In this document: piece after piece, positions 1-31,089 of the stretch | Layout: each line of letters opens with the position of its first letter | Position numbering within the stretch: the stretch's first letter is position 1 | The notes under the pieces: generated by a model | What the model was told of the DNA's origin: nothing | The model's database searches: none | The model's input: only the letters and a program-made list of their open reading frames with translations | Translations under genes and position numbers: made by a program | NCBI GenBank assembly: GCA_008632985.1 | Contig: QPGO01000047.1 | Span: 484,212-536,513, forward strand | Length of the DNA stretch: 52,302 nt | Source: Psammoneis japonica | Lineage: Eukaryota | Reading direction: 5' to 3'

Positions 1-3000
1 CACCAGGCACAGTTGCAAAATTTCACCACTGTGCCTGCTGGCATTTTTGCTGTGTTTTCAGGTCATTGTGTCACTTGCTTGAACTCAGCATGTGATTTGA
101 TGACAATCGCTGTCATTGGTGCAGCGGCATTTGCCTTTGCAAAAGTGTGACATTTTCAACAGAGAAATTTTGCTCAACCAAATTGGTGATTTTTCATCTT
201 GTCATCATCTGTCTGCACCACCCAAAAACAAAGGAAAACAGACAATGGCTGTTTTGAAGACAAGGGCAATGATGGAGCATGTGCTTTGCAAAGCCCACGT
301 CATTGTGTGTCCCATTTCTGTCACAAAGAAGTTGCACAGTGGCTCAATGTGAAGTTGAGTCATGTGATCTCAAGGCTTGAGAACAAAGCATTGTCAACAT
401 GTTGCCTTCAAGCCAAGTCAATGGTGTCCCCACAGTGTGGACTTGATGGTGCAAACCTTTCCTCAAAATGGTTGCATCTGGTTTGAGATGGCAAGGTGGC
501 AGCAACAGCAGCTGTTGGCAAGTCAAGCAATGAGGTTTGGCCTGGTGTTTGAGTCAATGAATCAAAATGCACAGAGGCACAGCAACATGAGGAGTTTGCA
601 GAGCAGGTTTTTCAAAATGGAAAAGTGCCGCAGGCGGGAAATCCTGTGATTGAAAATGTCAATGCTGCATTGAGTGACATGTGGAGAAGTTCAGAATTGC
701 AGTCAGGAGGAAGGAGGAGCAACACACAAAATGGAGGGGCTTTTTGCAGCACAACTCCAACTTGCACACACTCTCAGGCCACCCCCTTCAAAAGGGTTCA
801 GCATCAATTCTGCATCATCAAGTTTGACACCTCCTCCCTGTGAAGAGTCCCTGGATTCCTGCAAAGTCAACCAAGAGCTGCGCTTTTGGATGCAATCAAA
901 CCAACAAATGCACCGTGGGACGTTTGCGCCACAACATCAGTCCAGCAGATGCCAGAGGCCATTTTCTTCTCATTGCGATGCTCAACAATCCCAAGAACAA
1001 TCAAGGTCAATGATTGGCCCAAAACAATTGTCATGATTTGGTTCATCTTGTTTTCACTGTCACCCCCATTGATTTTTTGTTGATTTCCTTTAAGCAGTGC
1101 AGGGGCAGGTGCAAGTCAGAGCTGCGCTCACTGCCACGCATGGCTGTCTCCTCCAACTCCACTTCTGTCAACAGAGACAGACGTCAATGGCTGGAACTGT
1201 TGTGCTGTTTCCAAGGTGCTTTTGTGTCAAAGTGTCCTCTGCCAATGAGCCACTCAATCTCAATCCTTTTCTGGAAAGAGCTCAAAAACAATTCTGGATG
1301 CCGTTGGACATGTTCCACACAATGTTGGCCTGTCCAAGCACCCCACAGGAGTCCTGTCATTGCAGGTGGCTCCAATGCACAAACTGTGGGTTCCAGCAAA
1401 ATGATGGGAGTCTTTTGTGTGCAGACTTTGGACAAAACACAGAAACTTGGTGCTGCCGAAAATGGCGCAAGAGCACTGTGAGATGTGCCACACAAGTTGT
1501 GGGGTGCCTTCTGGAACAAAATCAAGATTCAGATGCTGAAGAAGCACCAAAAGTTTTTGGTGTGTGTGATTCTAGTGTGTTGCACCACCCAGGCAGCACT
1601 TGTCTTTGAGCAACGTGAAAAGAGCAAGAAACCCGTGAGTTCTGCAAAACTTTGGAGTCTCAGGCACCGCAACAGAGTGGTGTTGTCTCAAGTGCATGGC
1701 ATTTGAAGCTGATGGAACACCAAGGCACTTTGGCAAGACTCTGCTCTTGCTTTTCACTCCACAAGTGCTGGCTTTTTATGATCAGTTTTCCTCATCTTGA
1801 TTGATTTGCACCATGTCCAAGACATCGACTGCCACACTTGAATTAAATGAACAGACAGGTCTCTCCAGGAAATGCTTGCTGTTCAACTCAAAACCCATTG
1901 AGGCTGCAAGATTTGCTGGGCTGCCGCCATGGTCAATCCACACAAGAATGGAAGAGGGCAGTGTCTTGGCCATTTGAAAGGACACTCAGTGGACTCAGCC
2001 TGTGCACAACAGCATGGTGGACCAGAACAAAGGCATGCCCAGAAACATTGGGCACTCGCAATTGGGACAGAGAGCTGTTCTAACCTCCAAATCCTTGTGT
2101 GCCATGACTGCATTCTGAAACAACATTCGTTGTTCTTCTCATGTGCTGTGATTCTTCATCAATGCATCTGAACAGTGCTTTGTGTGGTTGCTGCAAGTGT
2201 GAGTGCAAATCAACAAATCTGTTCATCACCATGGAGTTTGTGGTCATTTGAGGCAATCAGCAGAATTCCAAAAGCTGTGACTGGGTCCTTGCCATTTCAG
2301 ATGCCGGGTCTTTTTAAAAGAGCTTTTGATTGCTCAAACTGCATGCAAAACAAATGAGTTGGCATCTTTGCTGCCCCCTGCAACCGCACAGCAGTGACGT
2401 GCCTTGCAACTGTTCTGCACAAGTGTCTGGAATTGCAGACAGAAGGTTTGTTGTGCAAAATCCACAGCTTGAGCCTGAGAGGAGCACTGCTTCTGTTCAC
2501 TTGTTTTCACAATGACACCACCACTTCCAGGGTGTGTGTCCATAAATGCAAAATGTTGGCAGGAGTGCAGCTTGAGCACCCTGAGCCAATTGGGAAGCTT
2601 GGTGCAGAGTTGGAGGTCTTTTGAAGAACCCACAGTCCATTTCATGCCATGCCACAGTGAAGAAGGGCTTTGTTCAATTGCTGCCACAGTTCCAAGGGAG
2701 AAACAAGATTGTCACTTTACGAAATGCAGCTGGATGAACCAACCAACACAAGAGCTTTCCTTTTGCTGCTTGCCTGCTGTTTCACCGCCCTTGGAAGTTC
2801 AAACCAGCACACCATGGCCACTTTTTTCCAGAACTTTTTTGCCACATGTCTCACCTCATGTTCTTTGTTTCCAAGACACCAATCTCCACAACCTCAGAGT
2901 CTTTTGCATGGATGCAATCAATGAGCATGCCAAATCCTTCCTTAACCCCGGTGCATCAAAGCAGCAGCAATGTGCTTCTTTGTGGCATCCCTGATCAACA

Positions 3001-5075
3001 TGGTCCTGATGGCGCCACAGCCAACATCAACATGTTGTCATGCTGCTCCTCAAGAAATGCTTTTGTGTGTCAAGAAATTCTCTTTGTCAAACTCTTGACA
3101 AAACCAATGAGCAACAGTGTTGTGAAACAGGGCTTTTGCTTTGGCACTTTTGAGCCCATCCACATCATTCCTGTGATGAAGAGGGTGTGCAAGAGAGGGC
3201 TGCTGGTCTTTTGGGTCTTATGATCTTCCATGGTCAAGAGGCTCAATTTTTCAAGACCTTGTGGGCACGTCTTGGGATCAACCAAAGTTTGGAGAGATTG
3301 ATGGCACCAAGTTTTGGAGCAAGCCACCAGTGCCCAATGTGCCTCCAGCAAGTCAACGAAACTCTTGATGCAAAAGGACACCTTCAGCTAGCCTGAAAAA
3401 TCATTTGCTTGAGGGGCACTGCTGCCAACAGAAGAAGTTGCCAGTCCCAGACATTTCTTGGTGGCTGCTTTGGCCAACTTGTCCATTGTGATTGCACTGC
3501 TTTTAAACTTCTGTTTGTGCAACAACAAATGCACTCCAGAAAGGGGGCCAAATGCAGATGAACAAAGGCAGCCTCTGAGGCAGTTCCAGATGCATGACGG
3601 CACCAAGAAACAGCAAGCTGCACTTCTGCTCACATGACAAATGCACTCCAGAGAGGCCGCGGGGGGGGGGGGGGGGGGCAACATCAGTCAATGCAAAACA
3701 ATGCAGACAATCAGAGGCAGCCTCTGAGGCAGTTTTTCCAGATGCTTGGCAGCACCAAACAGCAAGCACGCAATGGCACAAAGAAACAAAAACAAGTTCA
3801 AGATGGTGGCACCTGCCACTCAGAAACCACTGGGGCAAATGCGTGAGTTTGGCAGAAATTCTGCAAAGCAAGTGAAAAACATGACACATGGGAATCAACT
3901 GGAAAACACTCATGTGCAGTGTCTCACATGAACCACAACACATGAAATCAACTTGCTGAGTTCACAACAAGAGAGTGCAAAGAGATGGCATTGTCTGCAA
4001 CAACACAACAGCAACACAACTGCACAGAGCCACAATTGCACTGCAACAACAAATGGCACAAATTTCAAATTAAAAGAAAAGATGTGCACAGAAGTCAGTG
4101 TTGATTGATGCATTGCCAGAACAACATCAAATGAAAACTGACACTGTTTTTCCTGTGACAAAACAGTGCCTCAGTTCTTGCAGACATGCATTGTTGTGTC
4201 ACAAAAAATGTGCGCAGTCATCAACAAAACAAATGTTCACTGAAAGCCAAAAAGTGCAAAAGCTCTGCAGGGTGGAGACAAAATTGAATGCCATTGAAAA
4301 CTGCATGGAAAATCTTGTGTGATGGATTGTGGATCACCTGGGGTTGAAACAGGCCACAGGCACTGCAAGTCACTTTCAAGCTTTGTCAAGCATGAAGTCC
4401 TGTGTTCGCCTGATGCCTTCAGTGCAAAGAACATTGGGGGGGGTGGCTTGTGATCAACCCAAGGGCTTGCACTCCAAGTCCTCTTCTCACTTTGTGCAAG
4501 AACAAGATTTGGTGTGGGAGTGTGTTGCATTGCTCTTCTCACAAGTCAGATTGCTGCTTTTGTCATGGAATCATGGCCAGCAAGAGCTTGAAAGAAAAGG
4601 TTTGTGCAGTGCAACAGCCACTGGCCATGATGCCCCTGCATCAATGACACATCAAAACCAGGTGTGCAGGTGGGAAAGAAAACTGGCTGAAGGCTTGAAT
4701 CCTTTGAGACTGGTGGCTTAGCTGTGCACTTGCAGAGCAGTTTGCAGAGTGCCCCAACGCAGCTCCAAAGCTGCTTTTTGGTGGAGTCAACACATCAGAG
4801 TGTAAAGCGGAGAGAGCTGAGTGAACATTTCAAAACAAGAGCTCAGCCAATCCCAGGAGGAGAGCCCAGTGCAAACCCCAGCAGCTGCTGATGCTCTGTG
4901 TGATGTGTAAGGGCCAGGGTGTGTGTCATGACGACAGAGCTCTTTTTTGAGGCCTTGGCGGTGTGCAGCCCAAGCCAGACACACTCGCTGTTCTTGCGTC
5001 AACTCTCAGCATCTTCTGAGCTCAACATGCTCTTCTTGCTTCTTGCAAAGCAGTGTGTGATGTGACATTGGCAAA
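1..5075. repeat. Degenerate TpA- and CpG-depleted block, probably an old transposon relic (family not identifiable)
   Basis: TA is nearly absent, CG is rare and TG/CA is abundant. Dense overlapping Cys/His/Gln-rich ORFs have no recognisable domain. Composition reverts to normal at about 5080. Confidence 0.7.
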
Positions 5076-7433: not shown

Positions 7434-8950
7434 TTACATGTTTCTAAAACTATTTGGAATTATGTAGAGATTCTCAAGGTTCAATGCGGCCCGCCACCGA
7501 GTCTTTTGAAGTACCAAAGGGAGTAATAGACGATTGGAGTGCGCCTTTTCTGTCCAATTCTGGCTTGTGCCTTGTGCCGTATTCCGTTTCTTGTCCCAAA
7601 AACTCACCAGTCTTTTTGATAGACAGTGACGCTTTCGCCTAGATAGTTTCAGCCCGTCTTTGCTTCGGTCATATAGTGGCCTCATCCGTACTCCGCAAAT
7701 GAAGAGGCAATGTAGAGCAGCAAGCTCAAGTGCTAGAAAGGCGTTGTCCCAGTGAGTTTCCACGTCTAAAGGCTTCATTCCTTTATTGAGATGCCTTTTT
7801 CACATCGCTGTCGACCATGCCCGGCAAGTACAAGGGACCATTGAGGTTTCATGGATTGCCGTCATTGCTCCACATCTGTTTCATGAAGCGGCTTTTCAGC
7901 TGTCAACCCATTTCCATGCTTTTCTGTCAAAATGTCAATGGGACGACCCAGCACTCACTTGTGGTGGAGCTTCATTGGCAGCTGGACAGGCCTCTTTTGT
8001 TGACAAATCTGAGGCGCCGCAATGACAACGAGGAAGGCCGGTCGCAGCAAGGTCAGACTCAGAGTGAGATGCAGCCACAAATTCTGTGCCACTTTTGACA
8101 AAGATCCCAGCATCAAATTTGCTCATTGGAAGCTGTGTTCTGAATGTCAGTCACTGCATCCTTCCGCAATTTACATCCAAACCTTCAAATGACAAAGCAA
8201 ATCTGTGGCTGAGTGATTTGCAGGAGGAAGAGGGGTGGGGCTGGGAAGATTCGAGCTCTGTTGGCAACGCAAAATGCTTTTTCTCTTCCAGCGCATCTTC
8301 AAGCTTGTTTGCAATGCCCGGCGTCATGAATGCCAAATCTTGCAAGAGCAAAAAATGAAACATTTGCAATTCATCCTCTCAGTTGAAAACAACTTTGCAC
8401 CAACCACCTTGCTCATTGCCAAGCTCCCATCTTGAAGAAGCGCGTGCGCATCATCAAAAAGGTGCTTGTTGATGTGCCCAAGGTTGTTGGTGTGCTGTTG
8501 AAGAGAAAATTGCGCATTGAATTGACTGCTGCTCTGTTTTTCAGAAAATCTTGTTCAAAGCACAGTGTGCTTTGAAAGGCACTCCGTCTTTGCTCGTCAT
8601 GTTGTTGTCCAACCACCAAGCATTGGAAGAGAACAGGCATGAGCATCAGACAGCATGGGCCAGTTCTTGAAATGTTCCATTGACACAACAGACAAAGTGC
8701 CAAAGGAAGAAACTTGAGGAAGTGCAACCCTCTGATCTCGTCTTTCAAAATTGTGTTTCGAATCATTGGGTGCACTCAGGTGTCTCCGCCACGCAAAAAT
8801 CAAGGGAAAAAGGCCAACTCTTGGTGCTCCAATGAAATGAGCAACAAATCAGCCTGGCATGCATGTCTTGCTCTTGTCCATGGACACAGAAAGCCTTTTC
8901 CATCGGGGACTGTGCATTTGTGACCAGAGCGAATCATTTCCAGGCACAGC
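7434..8950 (-). mobile_element. Possible degenerate hAT-like transposase relic
   Basis: The minus strand reads 'LDVETHWDNAFLALE', resembling the hAT D-x-x-T-R-W-N-S motif. Further upstream 'TNNLGHINKHLFDDAH' resembles the end of a BED finger. Multiple stops and frameshifts; 7790-9056 is TpA-depleted. Confidence 0.35.
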
Positions 8951-9056
8951 GGCTGTTTTGCATTTTGCGTTTTTCGTCATCTCTCGACATTGTCCCCCCA
9001 ATGCTTTCGGGGTGCAACAACGATCATGACTGCAACCTTTTGGTCAAGATGCAACA

Positions 9057-14318: not shown

Positions 14319-14569
14319 AATTCGAGCTCGTAAATAATAAGCAGGGATATTGTACATACCTCGTCAGCACTTTGATATTAAATATTTATAATACCTGTTA
14401 TATCTTAATATATATATTTATTTTGCAACGGAATCTTCGCCAATCCGCCTCATTTTTTTCACACACACACTCCTGCGGGTTCGTCATAAGTACAACCTGC
14501 TTCCACCATGATCACTACAGCTCCTGGTCTCATAAGTCTGGCTTCGTAGACTCGTTCATAGTATACATC

Positions 14570-17109: not shown

Positions 17110-19336
17110 CTTCTTTTCCGAACTGAATGAATTGCTTGGTGACAAGTTCCCTCCAGGGAACAGCATGATGTCCTTGATGCAAAAATGAGCACGATGCCCC
17201 AGCTGCAGCAGCAACAAAAGAATTTTCATGACAAGGGCTTTGGGTGAAGTTGTGACATCATTCTGTGACATCAGCTGACACTCTTGCACAAGGGACCACA
17301 CTCAGAAGTCCTGTCAGCACATCATCACATGTGCTGTGGGCTGTGGAAACACATTTCCTGAAATTGTTTGGCATGAAAGAGCAGCAGGGTGGGCATTTGT
17401 GTTCAAAACTGGCAGTTTGTTTTTGCACACCAATTCTGTGTGTGCAGAGTGCTGATGGTGTCCATCTGTGTGGGCAAGAAGATCAGTGCAGCTCTGTCAT
17501 TTTTTTTCAAAATGACTTTGACAAAAAATGCTTTTCAGTCATGTGGATGGACGGCAGAGATGACACCAAGGCTTGTTGTTGTCAACCACCAGCTTGTGAG
17601 CATTGCTTGAGCACGGTTGCTGGGTGGGAGCAAGGCATGTGGGAATGACAAGATGAGACAAAAAAAGCATGAAAAACATTGGCAGCAGTGTGTTGGAGCA
17701 ATGAAAAGCTTGAGCCAGCCAGTGGCTGGTGTGTTGTGTGATGCCCACTTCATTGACAAGCATGAGTTGCTTTGTTCTGCCCTCAAGGAGATTGCAGTTG
17801 CTCCAATCATTTCTGACATGTTGTTCTTCCCTTGCCTCAGATGTGCCTTGCAAATCTGTGTGGTGTGTGACAACTGGTGATGGTTGCAATGTGGAAGAGG
17901 CAATGAGGAGAAAAGGGCTGAGAAAAAATGCAAAAGAATGAGAGCAAAGCATGCCCAGAGCAGAGCTCACAACATTTCAATGTTGACCATGAGAGCTGTT
18001 GCATGGGGCCAGCTCAGAAATTTTTCTTTTGCTTTGTTGTTTGAGGAGGGTGAAAATTTCAGCTTCTTTTGTGCTGAAATTTTTAACAACATCTTCATGA
18101 GAGAGGCAGAAATCAAGTGCTGGGCCACACAGGCAGGAGGAGGAGTCGCACCTGAAAAGAGTGATGTCTGCCATTTTGTGGTGCACCCACAAGCTTGTGA
18201 GAGTGACACTGAGCCTTTCCTGTGGCAGAGCAGTGTTTTGCATGCTCTGTCAGAGCAGCCAGCATCTCAGGCCAGAAAAGTTGTTGATTGCTGTCAGCAC
18301 GCAAATCACTGCAGAGGACAGCAGCATCATTTCTTGTGGCTGGCAGGAAGATTGTGCTTGGCACAGTGGTGGTCTCACCACTGCAAGGGTGCTGTCATCA
18401 TGGTTGCAGCAGCACACCAGCCCCACACCAGTGTCTTGAGCTCAACCATTTTGTGCATGTTTGGGGGGAACTGATGTCTTTAGAGAGGTGCTGTGGCGGA
18501 GAGTCTGCTGCCTGCCAAAGGAGGAGACTGAAGCACTGCTGACAGCCTTGCTGGGGCAACTGCCAAGGTTTCATCTGATTTGAACAAAATCACCTCTCCC
18601 CAAGTCCCAAGTCTTTGATCTTCCAGATGTGAGCAATTTTTGTTGCTCAAGTCAAGCATCTGTGCTCTTGTGGGTTTTGGGGGCAGAACTTTGCATGCCA
18701 TGACCAGCTGACCACTGTGCCACCACACACCATGCCATGTGCATGTTCACACCTTGGCAAGACAACAACAAAGATTGCAGTTCAAGAAATTTCTCCCAGA
18801 CTGCCACATGAAAGAGAAAGTGCTTGGTCACAAAGGCAAGAGCAAAATGATGATTGCACTCATCCTGGGAACATCCCAAGGTGTGTGCACAGCCCCCTTT
18901 GCACCATGTTGTGTGAGAAACAATGCAAGCCCCCAGCCAGATGAGCACACTGCATTTGTCCAGAAGTGTGCAGCACAAGCTCCCTTTGGTGGGCTGAGCT
19001 TTGAAACACAGATTTTCCCAGTTCACCACCTCGCTGTTCCCTTGTCAAAAAGAGAGCATTCCAAGTGGCAGGTGATGCAGTGTTGAGTGCAGAGGCAGAG
19101 CTTGTGCCACTTCACACAATTTTTGCCCTGTCAAGGGAATGCACCCAGCTGCTGCTCTGTGTCAAAGGCAGTGCACCAGCACATTTTTGCAGCCAGCCAG
19201 TGCTTCAATCTTTTGCCTGAAACAGCCTCTCACCAAAGCAGTCTCTTCAAAGCATTGCTCTTTTTTGTTGCAGAGCATGAGCAAGAGACAGCTGGTGAAA
19301 AGAGAGTGCAAAAGGAGTGGCAGCATGGGTGATGTG
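17110..19336. repeat. Degenerate TpA- and CpG-depleted block
   Basis: Only two TA found by eye in about 2.2 kb (18084 and 18481), both in TTTA. No recognisable protein. Confidence 0.75.
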
Positions 19337-19732
19337 GACGCGTTCCAGCCCTAGGTGGGAGCTCGTAGTACTGACGTGTGACAACAATAATTTTTATCAT
19401 CCGTCGTATGTTTCGTACGTAGATTTCTACGTGTGATATTTAAAAAAAATTGTCCAGACTCGCTGTTTTGCGAAGCCCCAGACGTTTTATATAACAAATT
19501 TATAGAAATAATAATGCGCCAGTTACATTCTTCAATGTCTGAAGAATGTAACTGGCTAAGTAAAAAATGATGTACTTCAATCATGTGCGAGTTTGTGCGT
19601 TCGCAAAATTGCCTCATTTTCTGTTGGCGATCATTGACATTTTAATTACCGTATAATTTTACTACGGAGCTCGCACGTAGAAGTCTACGGGCCCAATGTC
19701 ACACGGATTCCCACCTACGTCTGGAACGCGTC
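19337..19732. mobile_element. MITE copy B, 396 bp, same TIR family as 9057-9445, 4-bp TSD TGTG
   Basis: Starts GACGCGTTCCAGCCCTAGGTGGGA and ends TCCCACCTACGTCTGGAACGCGTC. TGTG at 19333-19336 and 19733-19736. The last ~70 bp are nearly identical to copy A. Confidence 0.9.
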
Positions 19733-22023
19733 TGTGGTGGCACAGTGATTCAGGGTTTGTTCAGGGTGGTGTGGAAGCATCTTCTTCAGAGCAGCATGGA
19801 AAAGGCAGTTGACGAGGCTGGAAAGCACACAAAGGGCAAGCTTCTGGAATGATGGCACCATTTTTGACAGTGGGTGCAGCTGGCTCTGCACAGCACAAAC
19901 CAGCAATTGCACTGGCAACCTGTGCCAACATGGTGTGGTGGGCAGTGGTGAGCAATTGAGTTGACAGCAGCGCGGCTGCTCAGCCTGCTGCGCACCAACA
20001 CACCGCCATTGCTGCTCCTTGCTCCCCACAGTTCTCTCTTTTTGGTTTGTTGTTCTGTTTGGAGACTTGTTGAGAGGCGCCATTTGCCATCAATGGCCGG
20101 TGCAGAAAAGGCACAAAAAATCAAAAGAAACCCGGCACAAATTGAGTGTCCCACCTGGGTTTGCTCTGAGCCTGTGATTTTATGGCCTGAATTGTTGGGG
20201 TGACTGGGAACGTGCCTCCAGATGTCATGCACATCATGAACACAAATGTGTGCGCAGCTGGAGCTTTTGATGCAGCACCTGCTTTTGGGTCAGCCCACAA
20301 ACCAATGACGCATTCATGTTTGAAGAAATGGCATGAAAGAAATGGTGTCTTGTTGCGTCAGCATGACTTGATTGAAAATGATTCTCAATGAAATGTGTTT
20401 GTCTGCATTCACATGGAAAGCATGTGTTGAGTTCATGTGCAACTCCCATGCATGTCATTTTTTGCAGGGAACGCTCTGCTGCAAACCAACGGTTTGGAGA
20501 TCAGAGAGAAGCTGTGTTGTTGCCACTGTTTGTTGCATGCATCACACTCCCTGGGCATGTTGTTGTTGCAACCATGACAACAACAACTTGAAAAGGACTT
20601 GTGTCACACTTGCCATTGCTTTTCCTTTGTCATGTCAATGTGTTGTGTTGAATCATCTTCTGGTGTGTGTGGTGAAGTTCGTTGTCCTGTTGAGCCGCAA
20701 CATTGATTGAAGCAGGATGAACCAGAAGATGCTCCATCTCCCACGTCAAAAATGCCAACCAAGGCACCAACATTTGCACCCATTCCACAACCTGCAATTG
20801 CCCCCACATGCTCACCCACCATGACTCCAACCTTGTGACTGACATTGGTGCCAACAACTCCAGACGCGACACGCAACCTGCTGCAGTTCCCATTTTAACA
20901 ACAAGCAAACCAACCTTTGTTGTCGCTGCGCCGGAAGCACCCACCAGTGCGGCACAACCCATTCCCACCAAAAGCAATCCCACCACCATGCACCATGGTG
21001 TCCTCTGCCATCTTCTCAAAGCTGCTGTCCCACCTCACATTTCTCAGATCATGGGCAACCTTGCAAAGTGTCACTCTGCTGAACTTGCTCTCTTCCATCT
21101 TAAAGCTTTTGCCCCTCTTCATTGTCAAGCCAAGCTGCCAACTCCTCATCTTGTTCCTCACAAACTTTCATCTCTTGCAAAGACAAAAACCTCTGTGTGG
21201 AATTTTTTCTGTTGAGATGCCTTGTGACAAGGTCAGAGCAGTTGCAAAAGTTCTCCTGGAGAAACAGAGTTGCACAAGAAAGCACACATCACAGATGATG
21301 TTTCCTTTTGCATTGATGAAAACATGCAGCCACATGAAGCATGGGCTGGCCTTGCTTGTCTCCTTGCTGCTTGTGCGTGCACTGACGCCAGGCAGTGACA
21401 AATGCCATGCACCCTTTTGCTGGGAACAAGGAAATCCAGAAAAATGGAAACCCAGAAATCTGGAAAAACGGAAACCCGGAAATTCAAAAATGTGGAAACC
21501 CAGAAATCCGGAAAAACAGAAACCCGGAAATCTGGAAAAACAGAAACCTGAAAATCTGGAAAAATGGAAACCCGGAAATCCGGAAAAACGAAAACCCAGA
21601 AAATCCAGAAAAACGGAAACCCGGAAATCCGGAAAAACGGAAACCCGGAAATCCGGAAATGCGGAAACCCAGAAATCTGGAAAAATGGAAACCCAGAAAT
21701 CTGGAAAAACAGAAAGACAGAAATCAGAAAAACTGAAAAACAACCATTCCACAACCTGCAATTGCCCCCACATGCTCACCCACCATGACTCCAACCTTGT
21801 GACTGACATTGGCGCCAACAATTCCAGATGTGACACGCAACCTGCCACAGTTCCCATTTTGACAACAAGCAAACCAACCTTTGTTGTCACTGTGCTGGAA
21901 GCACCCACCAGTGCGGCACAACCCCTTCCCACCAAAAGCAATGCCACCACCATGCACCATGGTGTCCTCTGCCATCTTCTCAAAGCTGCTGTCCCACCTC
22001 ACATTTCTCAGATCATGGGCAAC
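19733..22023. repeat. Degenerate TpA-depleted block containing a 280-bp direct duplication (20780-21059 / 21744-22023)
   Basis: Three TA found by eye (20181, 20896, 21101), all TTTA/TAAA. The two 280-bp copies align without gaps. Confidence 0.8.
21430..21740. repeat. Minisatellite, ~24-bp unit GGAAACCCGGAAATCCGGAAAAAC (8-bp subunits), about 13 units
   Basis: Directly visible tandem array. Variants are mostly CG->CA/TG (CCAGAAA, CTGGAAA, ATGGAAA). Confidence 0.92.
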
Positions 22024-22299
22024 TGACAGAAATCGAAGGCAAATGGCAAGAATTCAAACAACAACTCCTTGCTGCTGTCTAAATGGCAGATGAGTCTCCG
22101 CTCAGAGACCGTCACAGGAGCCGAAAGACGTGTAAGTCGGCATGATCGGGCCACTGTTGTTGTTCTTGTGAGCCTTGTGGCTCGAAAGCAAACTGCATCG
22201 CGCGCGAACGCGCGGAACTAAAGCACACAAAACTGTGCGCGGTAAACTAAACAGCGCGCGATACTTCGCGCGCATCCAAATCCTGTTCAAATCCTGTCA
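22024..22299 (-). repeat. 3' LTR (276 bp)
   Basis: TGACAG...CTGTCA; aligns without gaps to 28808-29083 with 16 differences. Confidence 0.95.
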
Positions 22300-25200
22300 C
22301 TCCCCAGTTTGCTTGAGGAGCCACAGAAACAGATTCGATTTCGGATGGAATGAAGTTCCAGAACATGAGAGGGCGGAGAAGGTCCCAGATTTGGGAGTAA
22401 CCCCAATGCTTGCTGAGAATGTCAGCAGGGTTGCGGGAGCCTTCGATGAAGTGGAACTCAAGGTAACCAGAGGCAATTGCCTCACGCACACGGTGGAACG
22501 ACAGTGCGGTGTGTCGCTTGTGTAACTTGGAGTGCGGGATGGTGGCACTGTCTACAACCGACTTGTTGTCACCGAACATGTAACTGACATTACGGATCGG
22601 GACGCCAAGGTGGCGCAGGGTGATGCGCAGGTCGACAATCTGCTCGACACAATTCCTTGCGGCAACAAATTCAGATCCGCAGGTTGCAGTCTCCACGGTG
22701 GCTTGTTTCTTGGAGAACCAATCAGCCGGGAATTTGTTGAGGAAGTGGAGCATTCCCATGACAGAGCGTCCGGTGAGCATGCAATGGCACAAGTTTGCAT
22801 CGACGCAGTGGGTGGCAGTGACGAACTTGCCAAGGGGCGGTGGAGCGTCCTTCGGGATCATCTCTTCTGCTTCACCATACACGGAATGCATCCATTCACA
22901 GGCCGGAGCAGGGAGATCCGAACAGTCGGGCTCTTCCGTACGAACGCGGAGAGCACCGTGTCGCATCTTGGAGAGGTGCCCACAGACGCGTTTGGCACGA
23001 TCCAAGTGGCCTTGACGGGGCGCAGCTCGGAAGCTAGAGAGTGACATGACAGCCGTGGTGATGTCAATTCGACCAAGGGACACTGCCCATTGGAGTGAAC
23101 CAACAAGAGACTGGAACTTGTGAATGCCATCGGGTCCCAGCAGTTCGGAAGTGTCCAGTTCGGGGTGGTCACCCTTCTCTAGAGGTGACAGGGCGTTGGT
23201 GGCAGGTTTCTCCCCAAACAATCGGGCGCAGCTGTCGACCATGCGCTCGATGTACTTGCGCGGAGACAGACACAAGGTTCCGTCGGGGTCCCGGGAAAAG
23301 TCGCAACCCAGATGGAACTCAATGGGTCCCGTGCCCTTGAGCTTGAACTTGCACTTTTCAATGAGAGTGTCGATGAAAGATTGAGGGTCCTTCATGGCAA
23401 TGGCGAGGTCATCCACATAAACGCCAATGCATTCACAGTGGTCGCCGTTCCTGCGCATCCAAATGTCGGGTTCGGCGCGGCAGGGGAAGAAGCCTTCAGC
23501 TCGCAGGCAGTCGGCGAAGCGCTCGTGCCAGCGGAGACCGGAACTGCGAAGTCCATACAGTGCCTTGTGGATGACAAGGATGTGTCCTTCGAGTTTGCCA
23601 AATTCGGGTCCAGCTACAATGTAAAGCTTCTCCTTGGTGGTGGCTTCAAGGCAGGCATTGCCAATGTCGGTGGCCCATGTCTCCAGCTCGTTGAGTTCGG
23701 CCAGGAAAATCATCAGCCGAAGGCCACGGAGGGAGACTACTCCGGAGTAAACACCATCGACAGGTACGTCCGTGAGGTGCCCGTCGGCTACGAGTCGTGC
23801 CTTGTGGCGACCGTCGTGTTTCACGTCGAACACCAGGTGCACTCGGATCTTCTTGTGTCCCGCAGGAGGAGTGGAAGACTTGAAGGGCCCGCAGTCATGG
23901 AAGACTTCGTATTCGTCGAGTTGGTCCATCTCGAGATTAGTTGCGTCTCCCCACTTGCGGTTGCCGTTGCGTTCGTCCAGTGACATGGCGTGTTTGTAGT
24001 TCCGGGGAACTTCGCATCCGCACTTGCAACGAGGTGCAGTGCGGAAGGAGCGAAGCTTGGCTTGGTTGGCCATGCGAAATGGCTTCTTTTGGCGCCTCGC
24101 GACAGTGCGGAACCGCTTCCAGCCATCCGTGTCGAGGAGTCCGTTCTCTCGTGCATAGATGGCACAGGTGACGGGGTCGTCCTTGGCGATGATGGCAAGA
24201 GGTTCGGACGTGATCTCCCCACTTTCCCATTCAAGCATGATGTTGTAGCTTGAGCCTTTCCAGGTTGGGTCGTGAGGCTTCAGAGGTCCTTCGTGTGATG
24301 CGATGCGTCGAAATTTCCAAATGGTGGTGTCTTCGTCTTCTTGCTCAATGTGATTCATGATGTCATTGTGGGCAAGGACTTCCTCGCATTCGTCATTGTT
24401 GACAGAGCAGACGAACTTAGTGAGCTCGGGATTGCCGTTCACTTTCCATTCGTGGTCTTCGACGGCCTTGACGATGCGAGCTCTGTGGCGTTGTCCATCC
24501 TCTTGTGGCTGCATGAGGAAGGTACGTCCAATGATGTCTTGCGGATCGAAAACTGGCATCTTGGGTGTCCTGATCTCCCCATCAGTAGAATCGACGGGGT
24601 TGTCGTCATGGCGAGATTTGATGATGGGTTCAGGTGGCTCCCCATCAGGAGGATCAAGACGCAGGTTTCGAACGGCAGGATCGGGGGCAGCAGAGCGAAC
24701 GTTGGACCGGCAGAGGATCTTTTGAGTCTCGTCAGATAGGATCTTGAAGGTCATCTGGTGGCCGACGTGCTCAGCAATGCCAACAAAGCGTCCACGCAAC
24801 TCACGGGATTCGGACGGCCAATCGGAGTCATCGAGGTGGAAGCACACTGGTTCCCACCAGTGAAAGCGAAGCAATGGGCTGATGTCCGGGGTGGATCCAG
24901 TGAGAGTCTCGAGGGGCGTGCGCCAGTGGAGACGTGGGGACGCTGTGTGGTTGAGCATGAAGCACACGCACATGAGCGCCAGGAGCCATGTGTGGGCGGG
25001 CGAACCAAAACGGTCCATGACAGTGTTCGCCATGCGCTTCACGGTCTGGTGTTGACGTTCGGCAAAGTTTTGGTGTTGCTGGTGAGGCTCACTTTGCCAG
25101 CTGGAGATGAAGAGGGCGCGCAGGATCCCGAGCACTTTGTTGCTGATCTCAACTTGAGCACGGTCGCCAATGAGTTTGGATGGTGCACCACGTTCACGGA

Positions 25201-27868
25201 TCTGATCCTCGAGTGTGTTGACAAACTCTTTGTCCGTCTTGGTGCCGCAGATGTCAGTGACGGTAGACTCGGTGCCAACAAACAGTTGGGTGCTGGTGCA
25301 ACCAGAGTCGACGGCCGGGGTGTCGGCATGAACGGTGTCAGTGGCGACAGGCTCGTTGCGGCGGTGCACATTAAGGGCGGGGTTGGGTGATTTGCAGGCC
25401 TTGCGAAGGTGTGCACCGGCGGGCATGCGGGCGCACTGCGTGGTGCAGTCAAAAGTACGACGGACCGCATCGGCAGGTAGGAAGCCAAAGCAAGGCCGAA
25501 GAGACTCGAAGGGGGGGTCCTTGGGCTTGACAGTGCGCTCTGGAGGTGGAACGTCATCGCCCGTGGGGTCAATCGCATGCAGATGACACTCGTAGAACAC
25601 GTCGTCGTTCGGAATGAGGTGATCATCGAGGGCGGACGCGTGATCGTCAGACAAGGAAGCGGACAAGATGGTCTCGTTGACAACGACACGGTGACGGCAG
25701 TTGCCGCATTCGTCAAATGGGTTGGCAGTGGGATCGTCCTGCAGGTCAGAGATCGCGTCGTACCACTGGTCGTCGTCAGTGACAGAGTGATCGAGTGCGG
25801 AAGGGTCCCACGTGTCATCACCGGTGAGGATGACATGGGGCAGGGTGTCCCATTCGGCGTCAGTGCAAGGTCGCATGGCAACATGAGGCAGGCCAGCCTT
25901 GATGTCAATGGGGATGACACAGCCATCAGGAGTGGCAACACGTTGCAAGCCGTTGGGCACCTTGACAGAGCGATCGTTGACATCCTGTTTGCACCATTCG
26001 AGCTGGCCGCAGGAATGGATGGTCTTGCCCTTTCCCGTGCATGCGTGCTGATGGAGGATGGCGATGACGGGACCACGCTGGGTCTCAATGACGGCACCAG
26101 CGGTGACAATGGGGATGTCCACCAATTGATGATCGTCAATGCCCTGAACGTCGACTTGGCGAGAGGTGCGTGCGATGACACGAACGTCGTCGCCAGCAAT
26201 GCCGCCGTTGGCCCCACGATCGACCAGAGCGCCAGTGCGTGTGGAGCGATGAGCAGAGGCAGAGCAAATGACATTGTGGTTGTCAACGCGGCGGCAAGTG
26301 CGGCCGTTAAGTTCCATGTTATCTGCAGAAGCTGGCGGGGTAGAGGAAGCGGCGGATGGCCCCGGTCGACTGGCATTGGGGGCTTGGTTAGGAGACAACA
26401 GACGTTGCAGATCACCGGGTGGCAGTGGCTTGCGCTTGGTGAGGTGCGCCAGGATGGGATCATCCGAAGTGGCCAAGTTGACATCACCGTCACTCCCAAG
26501 GTGTTGGTCGTGAAGGTTGGCCGCAACAGACTCATGGCAGTTGCTGGCTCGCGGGTTGCGGGGAGGCGGGCGAGAGTGCTCAAGGATGATCGCCTTGGAG
26601 GAATCGGGCAACGAATCCCAGAGCCGTTGGTGGTCGGGAGGGAGACGTCTCCATTGGACACCGGTGAGGCTGGGACCGCGGGTGTGGGCAGCATTGGCGT
26701 GAAGGACGTCAACGTCACTGTCAATGTCGCAGAACACATCGTCGGACGGTTCCTCGGAGTGGACGTCGTGTGCGTGTGTGGCGCGTCGGGGAGCTCGAGG
26801 TGTCGTCTTGGGTTGAAACGTGCTGTCGCACTGAGCTGCCGCGGAGAGGAGCAAGCCACAGTGTTGATCGTATGTGAGGCTCTTGCCACTCTGCGTACGA
26901 TGCTGATCAGCTTGGTTCTTGACAGCACGGAGTTCCTCGACAGGGTGCACGGCATTCTCGAGCATGACGCATTTCTGTCCTTCAGAGAAGTGGTCACTGG
27001 CGGGGATGAGTGCCTCGCACTTGCGCAACTGATCTTGCCAATGAAGGATGAACCCGTGGGTTGGACCTTTCCAAGTGCCATCACCAAGACGTGCGGTGGT
27101 GAGGTGCGTGAGCAGGGTGGAGGACTCGACAGATGCGCGGGTGGAGGCAAGCGCGTGCTCAGACAAGGAGCGGCAGACGGTCTGTGCGTCAGAAGACCCC
27201 ACATTTTCGCGAATGAGAGCCTTGCCCTTGTCGGTGAGAAGGATGCGTTCGAAGATGGCGAACATGCACTTTTGCTGTTCAGCAAAGAGCAGTTTGTCTT
27301 CGGGGCTGGTCGGTTTGTACGACGAGTCTAGAATGCACTCGACGTCTTGGGCACGGGCTTGTGCCACAAGTGAGGTGTGCCAAGTGTGCCACTGCTTGTC
27401 GGATTTGAGAGCCGTGAAAGCGGTGGGATCACGCTTGATGCCTCGCTTGAAGTCTCGCACCGGGTCGCGTGCCTTGGTCGGGTTGGTGACATGTGGAGGT
27501 GCAAGGGGTGAGCTGCCGATGGACACAGAGGACATGCAGTCCGGGCTGAGGCGGCAGGCAAGGAACTCGTCATGCGCGAACAAAGAGGAGTCGTTGGCAA
27601 CGTCAAGACCTTTGTGTGCTTTGACAATGTGCAGGCTGGCTAGTGCTGCTAACATGTTCTTATAACCACGGGGCAAAGGGATTGCATCAGTGCCGTTGTC
27701 GCACTCAAGCGAGTCGATTTGGGACGGTGTGAACGTGAATGGTTCCTGATGCGAGTCCGTGCCGTCTTGGGCCAAAGCCAAACGAAGAGGACTCCCAGCA
27801 CCTTGGGCAAGCACGGTTCCAACAACGTGCTCGAAACCATCGGTTTGTTGCTGACGAGTGAGAACCAT
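22247..27868 (-). CDS. Copia gag-pol polyprotein; frame open but hypermutated and probably non-functional
   Basis: Protease 'LVDRGANGG'; integrase 'VATDT...DRAQ...QNFAER'; RT 'HKARLVADG', 'KALYGLRSSG', 'VYVDDL'; RNase H 'FGDNKSVV...NPADILSK'. Many conserved Tyr are Cys/His. Confidence 0.93.
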   Translation of the reverse strand: MVLTRQQQTDGFEHVVGTVLAQGAGSPLRLALAQDGTDSHQEPFTFTPSQIDSLECDNGTDAIPLPRGYKNMLAALASLHIVKAHKGLDVANDSSLFAHDEFLACRLSPDCMSSVSIGSSPLAPPHVTNPTKARDPVRDFKRGIKRDPTAFTALKSDKQWHTWHTSLVAQARAQDVECILDSSYKPTSPEDKLLFAEQQKCMFAIFERILLTDKGKALIRENVGSSDAQTVCRSLSEHALASTRASVESSTLLTHLTTARLGDGTWKGPTHGFILHWQDQLRKCEALIPASDHFSEGQKCVMLENAVHPVEELRAVKNQADQHRTQSGKSLTYDQHCGLLLSAAAQCDSTFQPKTTPRAPRRATHAHDVHSEEPSDDVFCDIDSDVDVLHANAAHTRGPSLTGVQWRRLPPDHQRLWDSLPDSSKAIILEHSRPPPRNPRASNCHESVAANLHDQHLGSDGDVNLATSDDPILAHLTKRKPLPPGDLQRLLSPNQAPNASRPGPSAASSTPPASADNMELNGRTCRRVDNHNVICSASAHRSTRTGALVDRGANGGIAGDDVRVIARTSRQVDVQGIDDHQLVDIPIVTAGAVIETQRGPVIAILHQHACTGKGKTIHSCGQLEWCKQDVNDRSVKVPNGLQRVATPDGCVIPIDIKAGLPHVAMRPCTDAEWDTLPHVILTGDDTWDPSALDHSVTDDDQWYDAISDLQDDPTANPFDECGNCRHRVVVNETILSASLSDDHASALDDHLIPNDDVFYECHLHAIDPTGDDVPPPERTVKPKDPPFESLRPCFGFLPADAVRRTFDCTTQCARMPAGAHLRKACKSPNPALNVHRRNEPVATDTVHADTPAVDSGCTSTQLFVGTESTVTDICGTKTDKEFVNTLEDQIRERGAPSKLIGDRAQVEISNKVLGILRALFISSWQSEPHQQHQNFAERQHQTVKRMANTVMDRFGSPAHTWLLALMCVCFMLNHTASPRLHWRTPLETLTGSTPDISPLLRFHWWEPVCFHLDDSDWPSESRELRGRFVGIAEHVGHQMTFKILSDETQKILCRSNVRSAAPDPAVRNLRLDPPDGEPPEPIIKSRHDDNPVDSTDGEIRTPKMPVFDPQDIIGRTFLMQPQEDGQRHRARIVKAVEDHEWKVNGNPELTKFVCSVNNDECEEVLAHNDIMNHIEQEDEDTTIWKFRRIASHEGPLKPHDPTWKGSSYNIMLEWESGEITSEPLAIIAKDDPVTCAIYARENGLLDTDGWKRFRTVARRQKKPFRMANQAKLRSFRTAPRCKCGCEVPRNYKHAMSLDERNGNRKWGDATNLEMDQLDEYEVFHDCGPFKSSTPPAGHKKIRVHLVFDVKHDGRHKARLVADGHLTDVPVDGVYSGVVSLRGLRLMIFLAELNELETWATDIGNACLEATTKEKLYIVAGPEFGKLEGHILVIHKALYGLRSSGLRWHERFADCLRAEGFFPCRAEPDIWMRRNGDHCECIGVYVDDLAIAMKDPQSFIDTLIEKCKFKLKGTGPIEFHLGCDFSRDPDGTLCLSPRKYIERMVDSCARLFGEKPATNALSPLEKGDHPELDTSELLGPDGIHKFQSLVGSLQWAVSLGRIDITTAVMSLSSFRAAPRQGHLDRAKRVCGHLSKMRHGALRVRTEEPDCSDLPAPACEWMHSVYGEAEEMIPKDAPPPLGKFVTATHCVDANLCHCMLTGRSVMGMLHFLNKFPADWFSKKQATVETATCGSEFVAARNCVEQIVDLRITLRHLGVPIRNVSYMFGDNKSVVDSATIPHSKLHKRHTALSFHRVREAIASGYLEFHFIEGSRNPADILSKHWGYSQIWDLLRPLMFWNFIPSEIESVSVAPQANWGVTGFEQDLDAREVSRAV

Positions 27869-28792
27869 GGCAGACAAAAGTGGTGTCAGGACAATCAATT
27901 CTGGTCGGGAAGCGAAGGTGGACTCGAAACTTGGGTGAGAACAGACTTGACTTGAAACAGACTTGACTTGAAATCTTGAACTGTCTTAAAATCAGAAGTC
28001 GCCGGGCTTTGTTGTCCCGTTCGTTGTCAAGTGCTAAACTTCCCATCCGGACCGTAGAGTTGTGCCGGCACGTCCGAACCCGCAGCCAGCGGCGCTTTGG
28101 GTTGCTTGCGAGCGGAGTAGCGGGTTGTAAACCCCTGCAGGTGAGCTGACTGGAGGTGGACAAGACCCCCGAACCGTTCTCATTTTATGTCGGTTGGATT
28201 TCCCGATCAGGCTGGCCAGTTGACGCAGGCGTCAGGCGCTGTGGACGAACGAACAAACGCGGGAAAGCACCCTCGCCCCAACGCAGGCTGCAATCACGGC
28301 TGCTTGCTCTCACAGTCGTCCTCGTGGACCTAGTAGAACTGTAGAGCACCAGCAGTCCGGGGTAGATCAGGTACAATGGACTCGGTGTGCTTGTAGAGTG
28401 GCAGCAAAACCGCAGTCCGAAGAGTGGGTACAGGTTCTTGGCCGTGAAGATATGTATATATATATATGTCTTCAGCGACGAAGATCCTTGAATATGTAGG
28501 GTTCTTGACCGTTAACCGATGAATAGGTATATCAAGGGATGAGGATCAAGGATAGACTTGGATATGACCGTTGAATGTATGTCTTCAGCGATCAAAGGTA
28601 GTACAATCAATCCAGATATCCAGCGGTAAGGAGACTTGACGGTGACGTTAACTTCCTGCCGATGCCCTGGTATTGAATGCGCGTAGACTTGCCGATGTAT
28701 GTAGAATATATACGGAGGTCCACGTAGAATTGAAATAGCGTCGTTGGTAAATCAACGACGACGATGGCGGTTGCTCAATGGGTTGACAATGA

Positions 28793-28807
28793 GCAAGACT
28801 GTTAATC
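28793..28807 (-). promoter_or_regulatory. Putative primer-binding site complementary to a tRNA-Asn(GTT) anticodon arm
   Basis: The element strand reads GATTAACAGTCTTGC immediately after the 5' LTR. Its complement GCAAGA-CTGTTAA-TC has the form of an anticodon stem plus a CT-GTT-AA loop. Confidence 0.6.
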
Positions 28808-29083
28808 TGACAGAAAATGAAGGCAAATGGCAAGAATTCAAACAATAACTCCTTACTGCTGTCTAAATAGCAGATGAGTCTCCGCTCAGAGACCGTTACA
28901 GGAGCCGAAAGACGTGTGGGTCGGTATAATCGGGCTACTGTTATTATTCTTGTGAGCCTTGTGGCTCGAAAGCAAACTACATCGCGCGCGAACGCGCGGA
29001 ACTAAAGCACACAAAACTGTGCGCGGTAAACTAAACAGCGCGCGACACTTTGCGCGCATCCAAATCCTGTTCAAATCCTGTCA
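28808..29083 (-). repeat. 5' LTR (276 bp)
   Basis: TGACAG...CTGTCA; retains most TA dinucleotides lost in the 3' LTR. Confidence 0.95.
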
Positions 29084-29952
29084 CAAGCAATGAGCCCTTC
29101 TTGCATTGTCACTCTGGGCACTTGCGCTGCCCCAAGATTGATGGCATCTTGCTCACCCCAAATGTGCAGCAGCCACCAGAGCAGAGGAGCCAAGAAAAGG
29201 TGTGATGATGCCAAGCATCACATGAACCAATTTCAGAAAAAGAACTTGTGGTTGCTCTGGGTGGCCATCAGCTGGAAACCTCAACTCAGATGGCACTGAA
29301 AACAATTGCAAAGAAGTGGCAGTGGTGTTTCTGACAACACAGCATGTCTGCAAAGTGGTGGATTTGCTCGCCAACATGAACAGAGCACAAGTTGTTGCAA
29401 ACATGATGCTTGAGTGCAGTTGTTTTGTTGTGTGCTCTTTTCCACATCCCCAGCTTGATGGCTCACCTTGATGACTTCTCATGTCCACACCAGCACTTTG
29501 CCATCTTCCTTCTTTTGACATCATGGCATCTCATCATTGGTTTGTGCCACACTGATCAGCTTTTCATCATCATCCAGAGCTGCTTCATGTGAGGTTGTCA
29601 TTGCTGTCAAAGTTTTCTGACAAGTTTGCCTTGGTCCAGCTGCATTTCCAGGCTCTGGCACAATGCACTCTCCAAGAATTGCACAGGTTGGAAAGCTGCC
29701 AGGTTTGCGCACTCGCTGTTTCAATGATTTCTGCATCAAAAATGTGCAATCAACAGGTCACTGAGTGTCACATGTGGCCAACAGCTTCCCCAACAATGCC
29801 AAGCACACAATGTTGTTAGAGACACAAAAAAGGCAGTTGTGTTGGACAGCAGGTGACATTGGTGCAAAAAGACATTTGGTGCAAACAAGCAAGCAACTCT
29901 CATGGACTTCAGGAAGAACAACAACCAATTTGCAAGTCATGTTTGCCATTTC

Positions 29953-29984
<32 letters not shown>

Positions 29985-30975
29985 GACATGTGGCCAGGGT
30001 GCTGGTGCCTTTTTGCACAGTGGATTGACAGAACATGCAGCTGAGATTGCAAAATTCCCCTGCATGTCTCTGGGCATGGCTTGGTCAATGAGAAACAATG
30101 CCAAAAGGTGGCAGGAGTGGTGCCATGGAAGGTGTTGCAAACAGAAAATGCTTTTTTGCACTTGTCTTCACATGCGCATGTTTTCTCTTTTTCTGGAACT
30201 CCAGCACCGGGCAGACAAATTCTCGCTAAGATGAAAACTCACAAGATGAGGTGTTGCACATTTGAAGCCATTGCAACACCATCATCCAAGATGTGCATTT
30301 TCATCCCAGGTGAGAAACTTTTGGACAAATCACGAGGTTTTTTGCGCGCTTCTGTGCAGCACACACACATGCCCAGAGAACAAAATGCCAGCTGCGCAGG
30401 TGGCCAGCACAGTTGAGTTGTCCATGAATCAATGAAAGAAGAACAAGCACAGCCAACATTTGCAAAAATTGTGAATCAGCAGAAACTGCCTTCACAAATG
30501 TGAAAATTGCAGCCATTGTTCATTGTTCTTCTTGCCAAGTGCAGAAACATGTTGCAGACACAGCCAACACCATGCTGTCAACGAGGCTCGCAAAGTTGCA
30601 GAGTGTGCATTTGCACTGCACCTCTCCAGCTTTTGCCAAATGAGCCCAGAGGCAGGCCAGTGCACCTTTGCCACTTTGGCCAAGAAATCTCGCTCACGTG
30701 CTCGCCCTCTTGCAAAAACCTCTGGCAGCAGGCAGTGTCTTTTGATGTGCGGCGCTGAGGCAAACATTTGTCAATGCAGGTGCAGGGGTGCTGGGTGGCA
30801 CCCAGAGAGATGTTTTTGGTCTGGACCCATGCTGGCCAGTCGAAGAACCAAACAGAGAACACAACGGCTCCAAATGATGCACACCCACAACTTCTTCTGT
30901 GACTCTCCAACAATTCTTTCCTCCCTTGCCTTCCATCTCTTCTCTGGCTTTTGTGACCTTTCGCCACTGATGGAT
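29084..30975. repeat. Degenerate TpA-depleted block with (GTT)n microsatellite at ~29953-29985
   Basis: TA is nearly absent (seen at about 29817 and 30227). Overlapping Cys/His-rich ORFs have no recognisable domain. Confidence 0.7.
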
Positions 30976-31089
30976 CAAGTTACCTCGACATGCACCACCG
31001 CGTAACAAACAAAAGAAAAGAACCCACAAAAAATGCCTCTGTCTCTCAAACAAAGCATGGCAAAAGAAAATAGAACGTCCAAGCGTGTG

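Follow-up and report, generated by a model that had tools for sequence, protein, structure and literature searches.

TpA-directed transitions in mobile DNA of a diatom-like genome and the flanks of the TA dinucleotides that remain

Hypermutation directed at the TpA dinucleotide has been described in the chlorarachniophyte Bigelowiella natans, where two viral regions integrated in the genome acquired 231 new mutations in mutation-accumulation lines, 230 of them A-to-G or T-to-C changes, all at TpA (Mettrop et al., bioRxiv 10.64898/2026.01.13.699255). According to the main text of that preprint, the hypermutation arises de novo in cultured lines at a rate elevated approximately 1000-fold, and reverse transcriptase (RT) and transposase domains are enriched among the TpA-poor genes of this alga. 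Its authors propose an ADAT2-like adenine deaminase, with TadA and ADAT2/ADAT3 as candidates, cite DNA editing by ADAT2 in amphioxus and trypanosomes, and raise the 5' U preference of ADAR in their Discussion. Flanking context, CpG and diatoms did not come up in a term search of the main text of the preprint. Our literature search, whose coverage leaves out most subscription journals, returned no second description of TpA hypermutation and none for diatoms. Here we analyze a stretch of 52,302 nucleotides (contig QPGO01000047.1, positions 484,212 to 536,513; hereafter the window), and in particular its interval 17110-22022 and the Ty1/Copia retrotransposon that lies next to it (Table 1), in which TA has been converted to TG or CA. 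The original prediction, made from the letters of the DNA, had been that TAs survive here mostly within TAAA or TTTA because adjacent A-tracts protect them.

A 500-base dinucleotide scan of the window revealed five TA-poor blocks with abrupt edges (blocks A to E, Table 1), which are ancient and single copy (contigs at depth 64-67 in one public sample) and together comprise 12.7 kb with 26 TAs. The observed-to-expected ratio (o/e) in these old blocks is 0-0.1 for TA, 0-0.5 for CG and 1.5-2.4 for TG and CA; that of AT is still 0.6-1.0, and the GC content (0.46-0.50) is the same as in the neighbouring genes. Genes adjoining the blocks have a TA o/e of 0.4-1.1, and the TA-free gaps at the block edges (400-980 bases) end almost exactly at genes or insertions, a few bases away at most. 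Across the blocks TG occurs 1405 times and CA 1461 times, that is, the products of both strands are present. The interval 17110-22022 consists of two such blocks parted by a 396-bp element resembling a miniature inverted-repeat transposable element (MITE). The first of them, block C, lies within one 2350-base contig of single-copy depth (63.8) and has a CG o/e of 0-0.3 and a TG/CA o/e of 1.5-2.3.

The change itself could be followed in the Copia element, which consists of a pair of long terminal repeats (LTRs) around a gag-pol frame with an RVT_2 domain and is inserted within the old hypermutated DNA. Relatives of its polyprotein occur in Phaeodactylum, Nitzschia and Fistulifera (diatom homologs at 60-70% identity), and protein searches found no same-species copies, the top identity being 66-70%. 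When the two 278-bp LTRs (94% identical) were aligned, 12 of the 16 differing columns were TA in one repeat and TG or CA in the other: the 3' LTR had lost 10 TAs that the 5' LTR kept (read on the + strand, 6 have become TG and 4 CA), and the 5' LTR had lost 2. Both repeats belong to a single integrated copy, and these mutations were acquired after its insertion. The same conversion was seen at conserved tyrosines of the reading frame. An alignment with 31-35 diatom homologs contains 52 columns with at least 60% Tyr, at which the window encodes Tyr in 14, Cys (TGY) in 22, His (CAY) in 11, Phe in 4 and Trp in 1, 33 of the 52 being now TGY or CAY. The whole frame contains 1.0% Tyr, 4.7% His and 3.0% Cys, the corresponding values of the homologs being 4.2%, 3.5% and 1.2%. 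Along the frame the product switches often between Cys and His (22 runs vs 15.7 expected); therefore the hits are not strand-coordinated, and this absence of strand-coordinated clusters is as expected for hits on duplex DNA.

Other copies of the element, taken from the contigs of one public sample and aligned to the window at 80% likeness, differ from it by A-to-G at 207 places, T-to-C at 199, C-to-T at 144 and G-to-A at 153, with 13-36 places for each transversion type. Among the 40 places listed out of 910 variable ones, many belong to neighbouring positions at which TG is exchanged for CA, or have TA in one copy and TG or CA in another, with copy shares that mirror subfamily structure (e.g., 98% TG at the flank-symmetric site 22940) and cannot be counted as independent events. 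Solving the four transition counts gave approximately 50 variable TA sites and approximately 150 TG and 150 CA sites descended from TA, which implies about 350 ancestral TAs in about 5.9 kb, or about 59 per kb. Because this density matches that of the unmutated leader of the element, we conclude that a TA-rich Copia master has been eroded in its copies. About 85% of the Copia TAs have been lost with CG intact: the body and the 3' LTR have a TA o/e of 0.1-0.25 (approximately 8 TA per kb) and normal CG, compared with 59 TA per kb in the leader and 5' LTR (approximately 28190-29084). Altogether, these results show that the process acts at the DNA level by TpA-specific transitions on both strands, after integration and in discrete tracts.

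Loss of CG is a separate and slower process, because its depletion is confined to the old blocks, Copia having normal CG. It fits the ordinary decay of methylated CpG, and the CpG-type share of the differences within an old pair of direct repeats (Table 1) is 6 of 12. The remaining differences of this 283-bp pair are TTTA against TTTG in 1 column, one TG-against-CA pair in 2, another transition in 1 and transversions in 2. Units of the 24-bp tandem array between the two repeat copies likewise differ chiefly by CG against TG/CA. Conversion of TA to TG or CA removes the stops TAA and TAG, and the only in-frame stop it can make is TGA from TAA, which explains why the Copia frame reads through into the LTR. 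Long open frames persist in the old blocks too, where 52 are of at least 90 amino acids; a Pfam search with these 52 frames returned no family.

The flanks of the TAs left in the old blocks are not random. Fifteen of the 26 lie in TAAA or TTTA, compared with 167 of 1369 TAs (12.2%) in the unmutated part of the window (p = 4e-8) and 11.2% of the 4,996 TAs found in 35 Copia loci that are related but not hypermutated (p = 1e-8). By a wider rule, which is a generalisation made after seeing the data, 24 of the 26 are TAA or TTA (36.7% in the window baseline and 39.8% in the Copia loci). The survivor contexts comprise xTAA classes only, plus 2 CTAG, with none in ATAC, ATAG, ATAT, CTAC or GTAC and with the highest apparent survival in TTAA; ATA/TAT (A before or T after the TA) accounts for 4 of 26, compared with 50.5% at baseline. 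The excess of A is visible at the first flanking base and extends to the second and third, and the runs beside surviving TAs are short (2-4 bases). A model of loss without flank effects was rejected (likelihood-ratio test, LRT, 56.9 with 3 degrees of freedom, df), the fitted loss rates by neighbouring base being 0.27 for A, 1.6 for G, 2.6 for C and 3.0 for T. Also rejected was a null of newborn TAs drawn from a generic mutation spectrum, which predicts 48% TTA/TAA (p = 2e-6) and 17% TAAA/TTTA (p = 3e-6). Tables of trinucleotide excess were set aside, being confounded by CG decay. As the original prediction had stated, all five TAs of the two blocks in the focal interval are TTTA or TAAA (chance 2e-5 to 1.4e-4 at baselines of 0.11-0.17), and the residual TAs of positions 1-5075 often obey the rule (9/16). 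In blocks B and E (7950-9056 and 29085-31050), which it had not cited, 1 of 5 TAs is TAAA/TTTA and all 5 are TAA/TTA.

The observation behind the prediction is thus real but only in part general: as a rule for survivors it fits the old blocks but not the interior of the Copia element, and its account by A-tract protection likewise fits the former without enrichment in the latter. Over all hypermutated sequence the share of TAAA/TTTA is 23 of 79. Several points weigh against protection by A-tracts. A single stretch of 52 kb served both to derive the rule and to test it, and the flank baselines are proxies for the ancestral state of the old blocks. Among the 47 survivors in the Copia interior (22301-28000), 4 are TAAA/TTTA and 18 are TAA/TTA, compared with baselines of 11.2% and 39.8%; none of the 28 survivors outside Tyr codons is TAAA/TTTA; and approximately 16 TAAA/TTTA survivors would be estimated there from the old-block rate ratios, with 4 seen. 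At the conserved tyrosines, where the test normalises for the ancestral state, codons preceded by TT were kept in 3 of 5 cases compared with 11 of 42 others (p = 0.15), and those preceded by T in 5 of 11 compared with 9 of 36 (p = 0.18). Retention of Tyr is moreover patchy (2/19 in the N-terminal half vs 12/28 in the C-terminal half, p = 0.024), and in the N-terminal half, on which the original prediction had not drawn, the two Tyr codons in TTTA (at residues 545 and 857) were both lost, as were all five in TTA. Fitted Copia loss rates are 0.67 for A, 0.61 for C, 0.53 for G and 1.9 for T, and relative flank rates common to old blocks and Copia were rejected (LRT 14-15, 3 df, p ~0.002). Finally, three of the four LTR TAAA sites discussed below lie within 30 bp, in a stretch without any TA loss.

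The individual sites named in the original prediction were read correctly. All four TAs common to both LTRs are TAAA (cTAAAt, cTAAAg, gTAAAc and cTAAAc), and TAAA was kept at 4 of 4 LTR sites compared with 2 of 12 other TAs (p = 0.008), or at 7 of 9 compared with 13 of 54 when LTR and Tyr sites were pooled (p = 0.003). The Tyr codons of GVYSG, KLYIV and GVYVD, which make up three of the four TAAA/TTTA sites in the Copia interior, are gttTAc, cttTAc and gttTAt on the sense (minus) strand, as described, but they lie in invariant RT motifs and in a less-mutated patch; the interior retains 18 Tyr codons, of which only these 3 are TTTA. Preferential loss of ATA/TAT was found in Copia as well (10/47 survivors vs 50.5%, p = 5e-5; 3/28 outside Tyr codons, p = 1e-5). 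Survivors adjacent to CG (CGTA/TACG) are over-represented (12/47 vs 11.5%, p = 0.009, post hoc), which may reflect shielding by methylated CpG. In a hand count, A before the Tyr codon favoured the T-to-C product by 4:1, compared with 7:21 otherwise; we draw no conclusion from this count, and the 10 lost LTR sites showed no flank-dependent strand pattern. Altogether, the flank dependence of the mutator is real, with ATA/TAT the fastest context in both data sets. Protection by A-tracts is partly supported: it appears at near-saturation and is not visible at 80-85% loss in the CG-rich young element.

We propose that in a diatom-like genome silenced mobile DNA would be targeted at the DNA level by transitions that turn TpA into TpG or CpA. 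Their likeliest chemistry would be adenine deamination on either strand, as has been proposed for B. natans, and CpG would be lost more slowly through change of methylated CpG to TpG or CpA. The interval 17110-22022 would represent an old, single-copy and unrecognisable remnant in which both processes are near completion. With respect to flanks, ATA/TAT would be lost first and TAA/TTA last, most of all at junctions of T-runs and A-runs (TTTA/TAAA), so that sites of the TAA/TTA type would be practically the sole TAs left at near-saturation. In this scheme a single A following the TA would shield the adenine of either strand at once, and a duplex read-out is therefore favoured over a single-strand motif, which suggests that the mutator senses the base pairs around TpA by their sequence or their shape. 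We infer that one mutator with one flank code could have produced the patterns of both the old blocks and Copia. To reconcile the two, it may be that only the longer T-run/A-run junctions are refractory, these being rare in GC-rich coding DNA; the G/C-flanked TAs in Copia may be protected by neighbouring methylated CpG, a protection that ends with CpG decay; or the old-block TAs may be newcomers that arose by changes of the TCA-to-TTA type.

That the old-block TAs are survivors of flank-dependent TpA conversion is, in our judgment, an evenly balanced proposition. We consider it unlikely, although deserving of serious attention, that they are instead newcomers, all ancestral TAs having been erased irrespective of their flanks and TAs having later been gained in a specific context, for instance by C-to-T change at TpCpA (TCA to TTA, or TGA to TAA when read on the opposite strand). 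Such a gain would yield only TTA/TAA, the class of 24 of the 26 TAs seen, and would not call for the A-tract protection that is missing from the Copia interior at 80-85% loss. The only TA/TG difference of the direct repeat pair (20896 vs 21860) can be read either way, and the unmutated MITE-like element inside the block suggests that hypermutation no longer acts there. However, a generic spectrum gives just 48% TTA/TAA and 17% TAAA/TTTA, and a special TpC-type mutator, otherwise unseen, would be required; the C-to-T places among the 40 of 910 listed are not TpC-biased. A second A or T in 15 of the 24 TTA/TAA survivors, compared with a baseline of 33% (167/502), is also explained less well by TCA-to-TTA change, and the four TAAA sites of the LTRs, being shared by the two repeats, must be ancestral and were not gained. 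Quite improbable in our view is that the flank dependence, though real, comes from chromatin or methylation and not from enzyme specificity. In this case A/T runs would change packaging (by nucleosome exclusion or a missing targeting mark), packaging would not be the same in young elements rich in CG as in old blocks devoid of it, or methylated CpGs would shield TAs. The flank spectra do differ between CG-rich Copia and CG-poor old blocks, CG-adjacent TAs are in excess among the Copia survivors, retention is patchy at the scale of hundreds of bases, and the leader and 5' LTR were spared as one block. Yet the protecting runs comprise just 2-4 bases, whereas the tracts known for nucleosome exclusion are far longer, and the effect starts from the first flanking base.

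The TAAA/TTTA pattern is very unlikely to be a small-number, post hoc regularity devoid of mechanism. In favour of chance are the low number of old-block TAs (26), a hypothesis made and tested on the same data, 1 of 5 sites following it in blocks B and E, and its failure in the Copia interior; nevertheless, p lies between 1e-8 and 4e-8 for two independent baselines and between 1.5e-6 and 3e-6 for the within-block nulls, and the pattern stays significant under a generous correction for having several patterns to choose from. Editing of retrotransposon RNA by an ADAR-like enzyme, fixed by reverse transcription, and GC-biased gene conversion or a general AT-to-GC mutation bias are disfavoured because one dinucleotide is affected, on both strands in alternation, by changes made after integration. 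We regard the former as highly improbable. The preference of such enzymes for a 5' U/T agrees with TpA, and Cys exceeds His at the lost Tyr sites (22 vs 11, p = 0.08), but both strands are affected (1405 TG and 1461 CA in the old blocks, 6 TG and 4 CA in the LTR), a single integrated copy carries differing LTRs, and the products alternate without strand runs. Moreover, as reported in the main text of the preprint, the B. natans process acts on integrated single-copy DNA (bioRxiv 10.64898/2026.01.13.699255). A bias toward GC has in our opinion a negligible probability. The net direction at TA sites is indeed from AT to GC, but TA is affected alone, with AT, AA and TT persisting and block GC equal to gene GC, the borders are sharp, and the concurrent loss of CG runs from GC to AT. 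The original prediction had dismissed general GC-biased drift, and its dismissal is well supported: only TA and CG are lost, within sharp borders, and one LTR has lost 10 TAs.

To return to flank-dependent conversion, its broadest form is that diatoms (stramenopiles) share a rhizarian-type TpA adenine-editing defence whose enzyme reads duplex DNA with a flank code. We put this forward tentatively, as possible though short of probable, and within the same tentative reading the code would have ATA/TAT as the fastest context, TAA/TTA as the slowest and run junctions as nearly refractory, with shielding by methylated CpG possible.

The Copia family is large, in the order of a thousand copies (summed depth 7e4-1.8e5 vs approximately 60-140 for single-copy sequence). 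Sparing of the leader seems general across it, because contigs of other copies show 0.3-1% divergence from the window in the leader and 2-4% in the body. The hypermutated tract of the window copy ends at approximately 27990-28330, some 100-400 bases before the reading frame starts, and inspection by eye revealed no clean target-site duplication. At the GVYSG Tyr codon (23748-23750) the + strand of the window copy has TAAA; in the other copies approximately 98% of the summed depth at position 23750 is G (TAGA), and the TA is mostly lost (CA 56%, TG 15%). Thus far anecdotally, the sole copy with the extra A at this codon kept its TA. The MITE-like family is also of high copy number (summed depth approximately 8e4 vs approximately 60-140), and its members inside the erased blocks are unmutated, so either repetition alone is no trigger or the process has stopped there.

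Related Copia loci were found in genome contigs (34, in metagenome-assembled genomes, MAGs, labelled bacterial or archaeal) and in metagenome contigs (1, at 49% identity), and none in viral contigs. None of the 34 MAG loci is strongly TA-depleted, the lowest TA o/e values being 0.32 and 0.44, and they served solely as a baseline for the flanks. These MAG fragments (L002-L035) are of the diatom type, 13 of them in one Sphingobacteriaceae bin, and probably represent eukaryotic contamination of prokaryote-labelled bins. Several of them are CG-poor (o/e 0.12-0.24) without TA loss. A metagenome Copia protein, P0201 (also P0182 and P0209), which is 58% identical to that of the window, contains 0.9% Tyr, 4.9% His and 3.4% Cys; judged by composition, this may be the same Tyr-to-His/Cys signature, and hints at the process in another organism.

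The window is otherwise gene-dense and eukaryotic, and it contains no deaminase gene. An uninterrupted 860-amino-acid frame with a DENN domain lies at 14093-16675, and its best named relatives are from diatoms (37-41% identity). A duplicated segment (32803-33518 and 40139-40875; approximately 740 bases, 86% identical) overlaps unannotated reading frames, and a gap of 867 N is present at approximately 45223-46090.

Table 1. Coordinates of the hypermutated blocks, repeats and Copia parts within the window
Feature	Position	Strand	Description
Ancient hypermutated block A	1..5075		16 TAs, 9 of them TAAA/TTTA
Ancient hypermutated block B	~7950..9056		1 TA (8172, attTAcat)
MITE-like family, second copy	9057-9445		
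Ancient hypermutated block C	17110..19336		TAs at 18084 (tttTAaca) and 18481 (cttTAgag)
MITE-like insertion	19337..19732		24-nt terminal inverted repeats; normal TA and CG, not hypermutated
Ancient hypermutated block D	19733..22022		TAs at 20181 (tttTAtgg), 20896 (tttTAaca) and 21101 (tctTAaag)
Direct repeat, left copy	20777..21059	+	283 bp, 95% identical to right copy
Tandem array	21431..21738	+	24-bp unit, 12.8 copies, between the direct-repeat copies
Direct repeat, right copy	21741..22023	+	abuts the Copia LTR
Copia 3' LTR	22023..22300	-	keeps 6 TAs
Copia polyprotein frame	22247..27898	-	1883 amino acids, RVT_2 (E 1.3e-27), reads on into the LTR
Copia leader	28190..28806	-	normal TA density
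Copia 5' LTR	28807..29084	-	largely unmutated, 14 TAs
Ancient hypermutated block E	29085..31050		beyond the Copia insertion; 4 TAs, none TAAA/TTTA, all TAA or TTA

These results place the TpA signature of B. natans in a diatom-like genome, that is, in a new lineage and on a new target, a Copia family with around a thousand members, with the process near completion in old intergenic remnants. If our reading is correct, TpA hypermutation would span a wide phylogenetic range and would rank among the main influences on the repeat DNA of an algal group that dominates ecologically. Dependence on the flanks is a new and testable property of it. A reproducible flank code, if true, would serve as a fingerprint for the enzyme and as a direct test for candidate deaminases, would help annotators to recognise and date erased mobile elements, and would explain how saturated targets end up TA-free, CG-free, stop-poor and rich in TG and CA. 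The conversion also leaves long false reading frames behind, a source of false gene calls that matters for gene prediction.

As in B. natans, to judge by the main text of the preprint, TpA is changed to TpG or CpA on both strands within blocks of foreign or mobile DNA, leaving tracts rich in CpA and TpG. Unlike that chlorarachniophyte, the nearest named relatives of the window genes are diatoms, and the targets are a high-copy Copia element and ancient single-copy remnants instead of the giant-virus and virophage inserts that the preprint describes. Depletion is also far deeper here (TA o/e 0-0.1, compared with the 0.45 given there for B. natans), and loss of CpG is superimposed on it. With repeat-induced point mutation (RIP) of fungi the process shares a defence-like transition hypermutation of repeated or mobile DNA, a dinucleotide preference and compositionally skewed blocks. 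The direction of RIP is the opposite, from CpA to TpA, by which TA is enriched and stops are created, whereas here TA is destroyed and frames stay open; high-copy MITEs and the Copia leader are untouched here, so repetition alone is no trigger. The decay of methylated CpG in transposable elements resembles the change of CG to TG or CA in the old blocks and the CpG-type differences between repeat copies, but it covers only the CG half, the loss of TA from Copia being separate and faster.

Clustered transitions of the deaminase type in retroelements are also produced by ADAR and APOBEC enzymes. These act on one RNA or cDNA strand in a strand-coordinated manner, whereas the changes described here alternate between strands and follow integration, and the base altered by APOBEC is C instead of A. 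ADAR has a preference for a 5' U, and the natural target of tRNA adenosine deaminases, A34, always follows U33. This U33-A34 target of TadA and ADAT2/ADAT3 agrees with the TpA requirement seen here, to which the window adds a flank order, with T after the A favoured and A after the A disfavoured.

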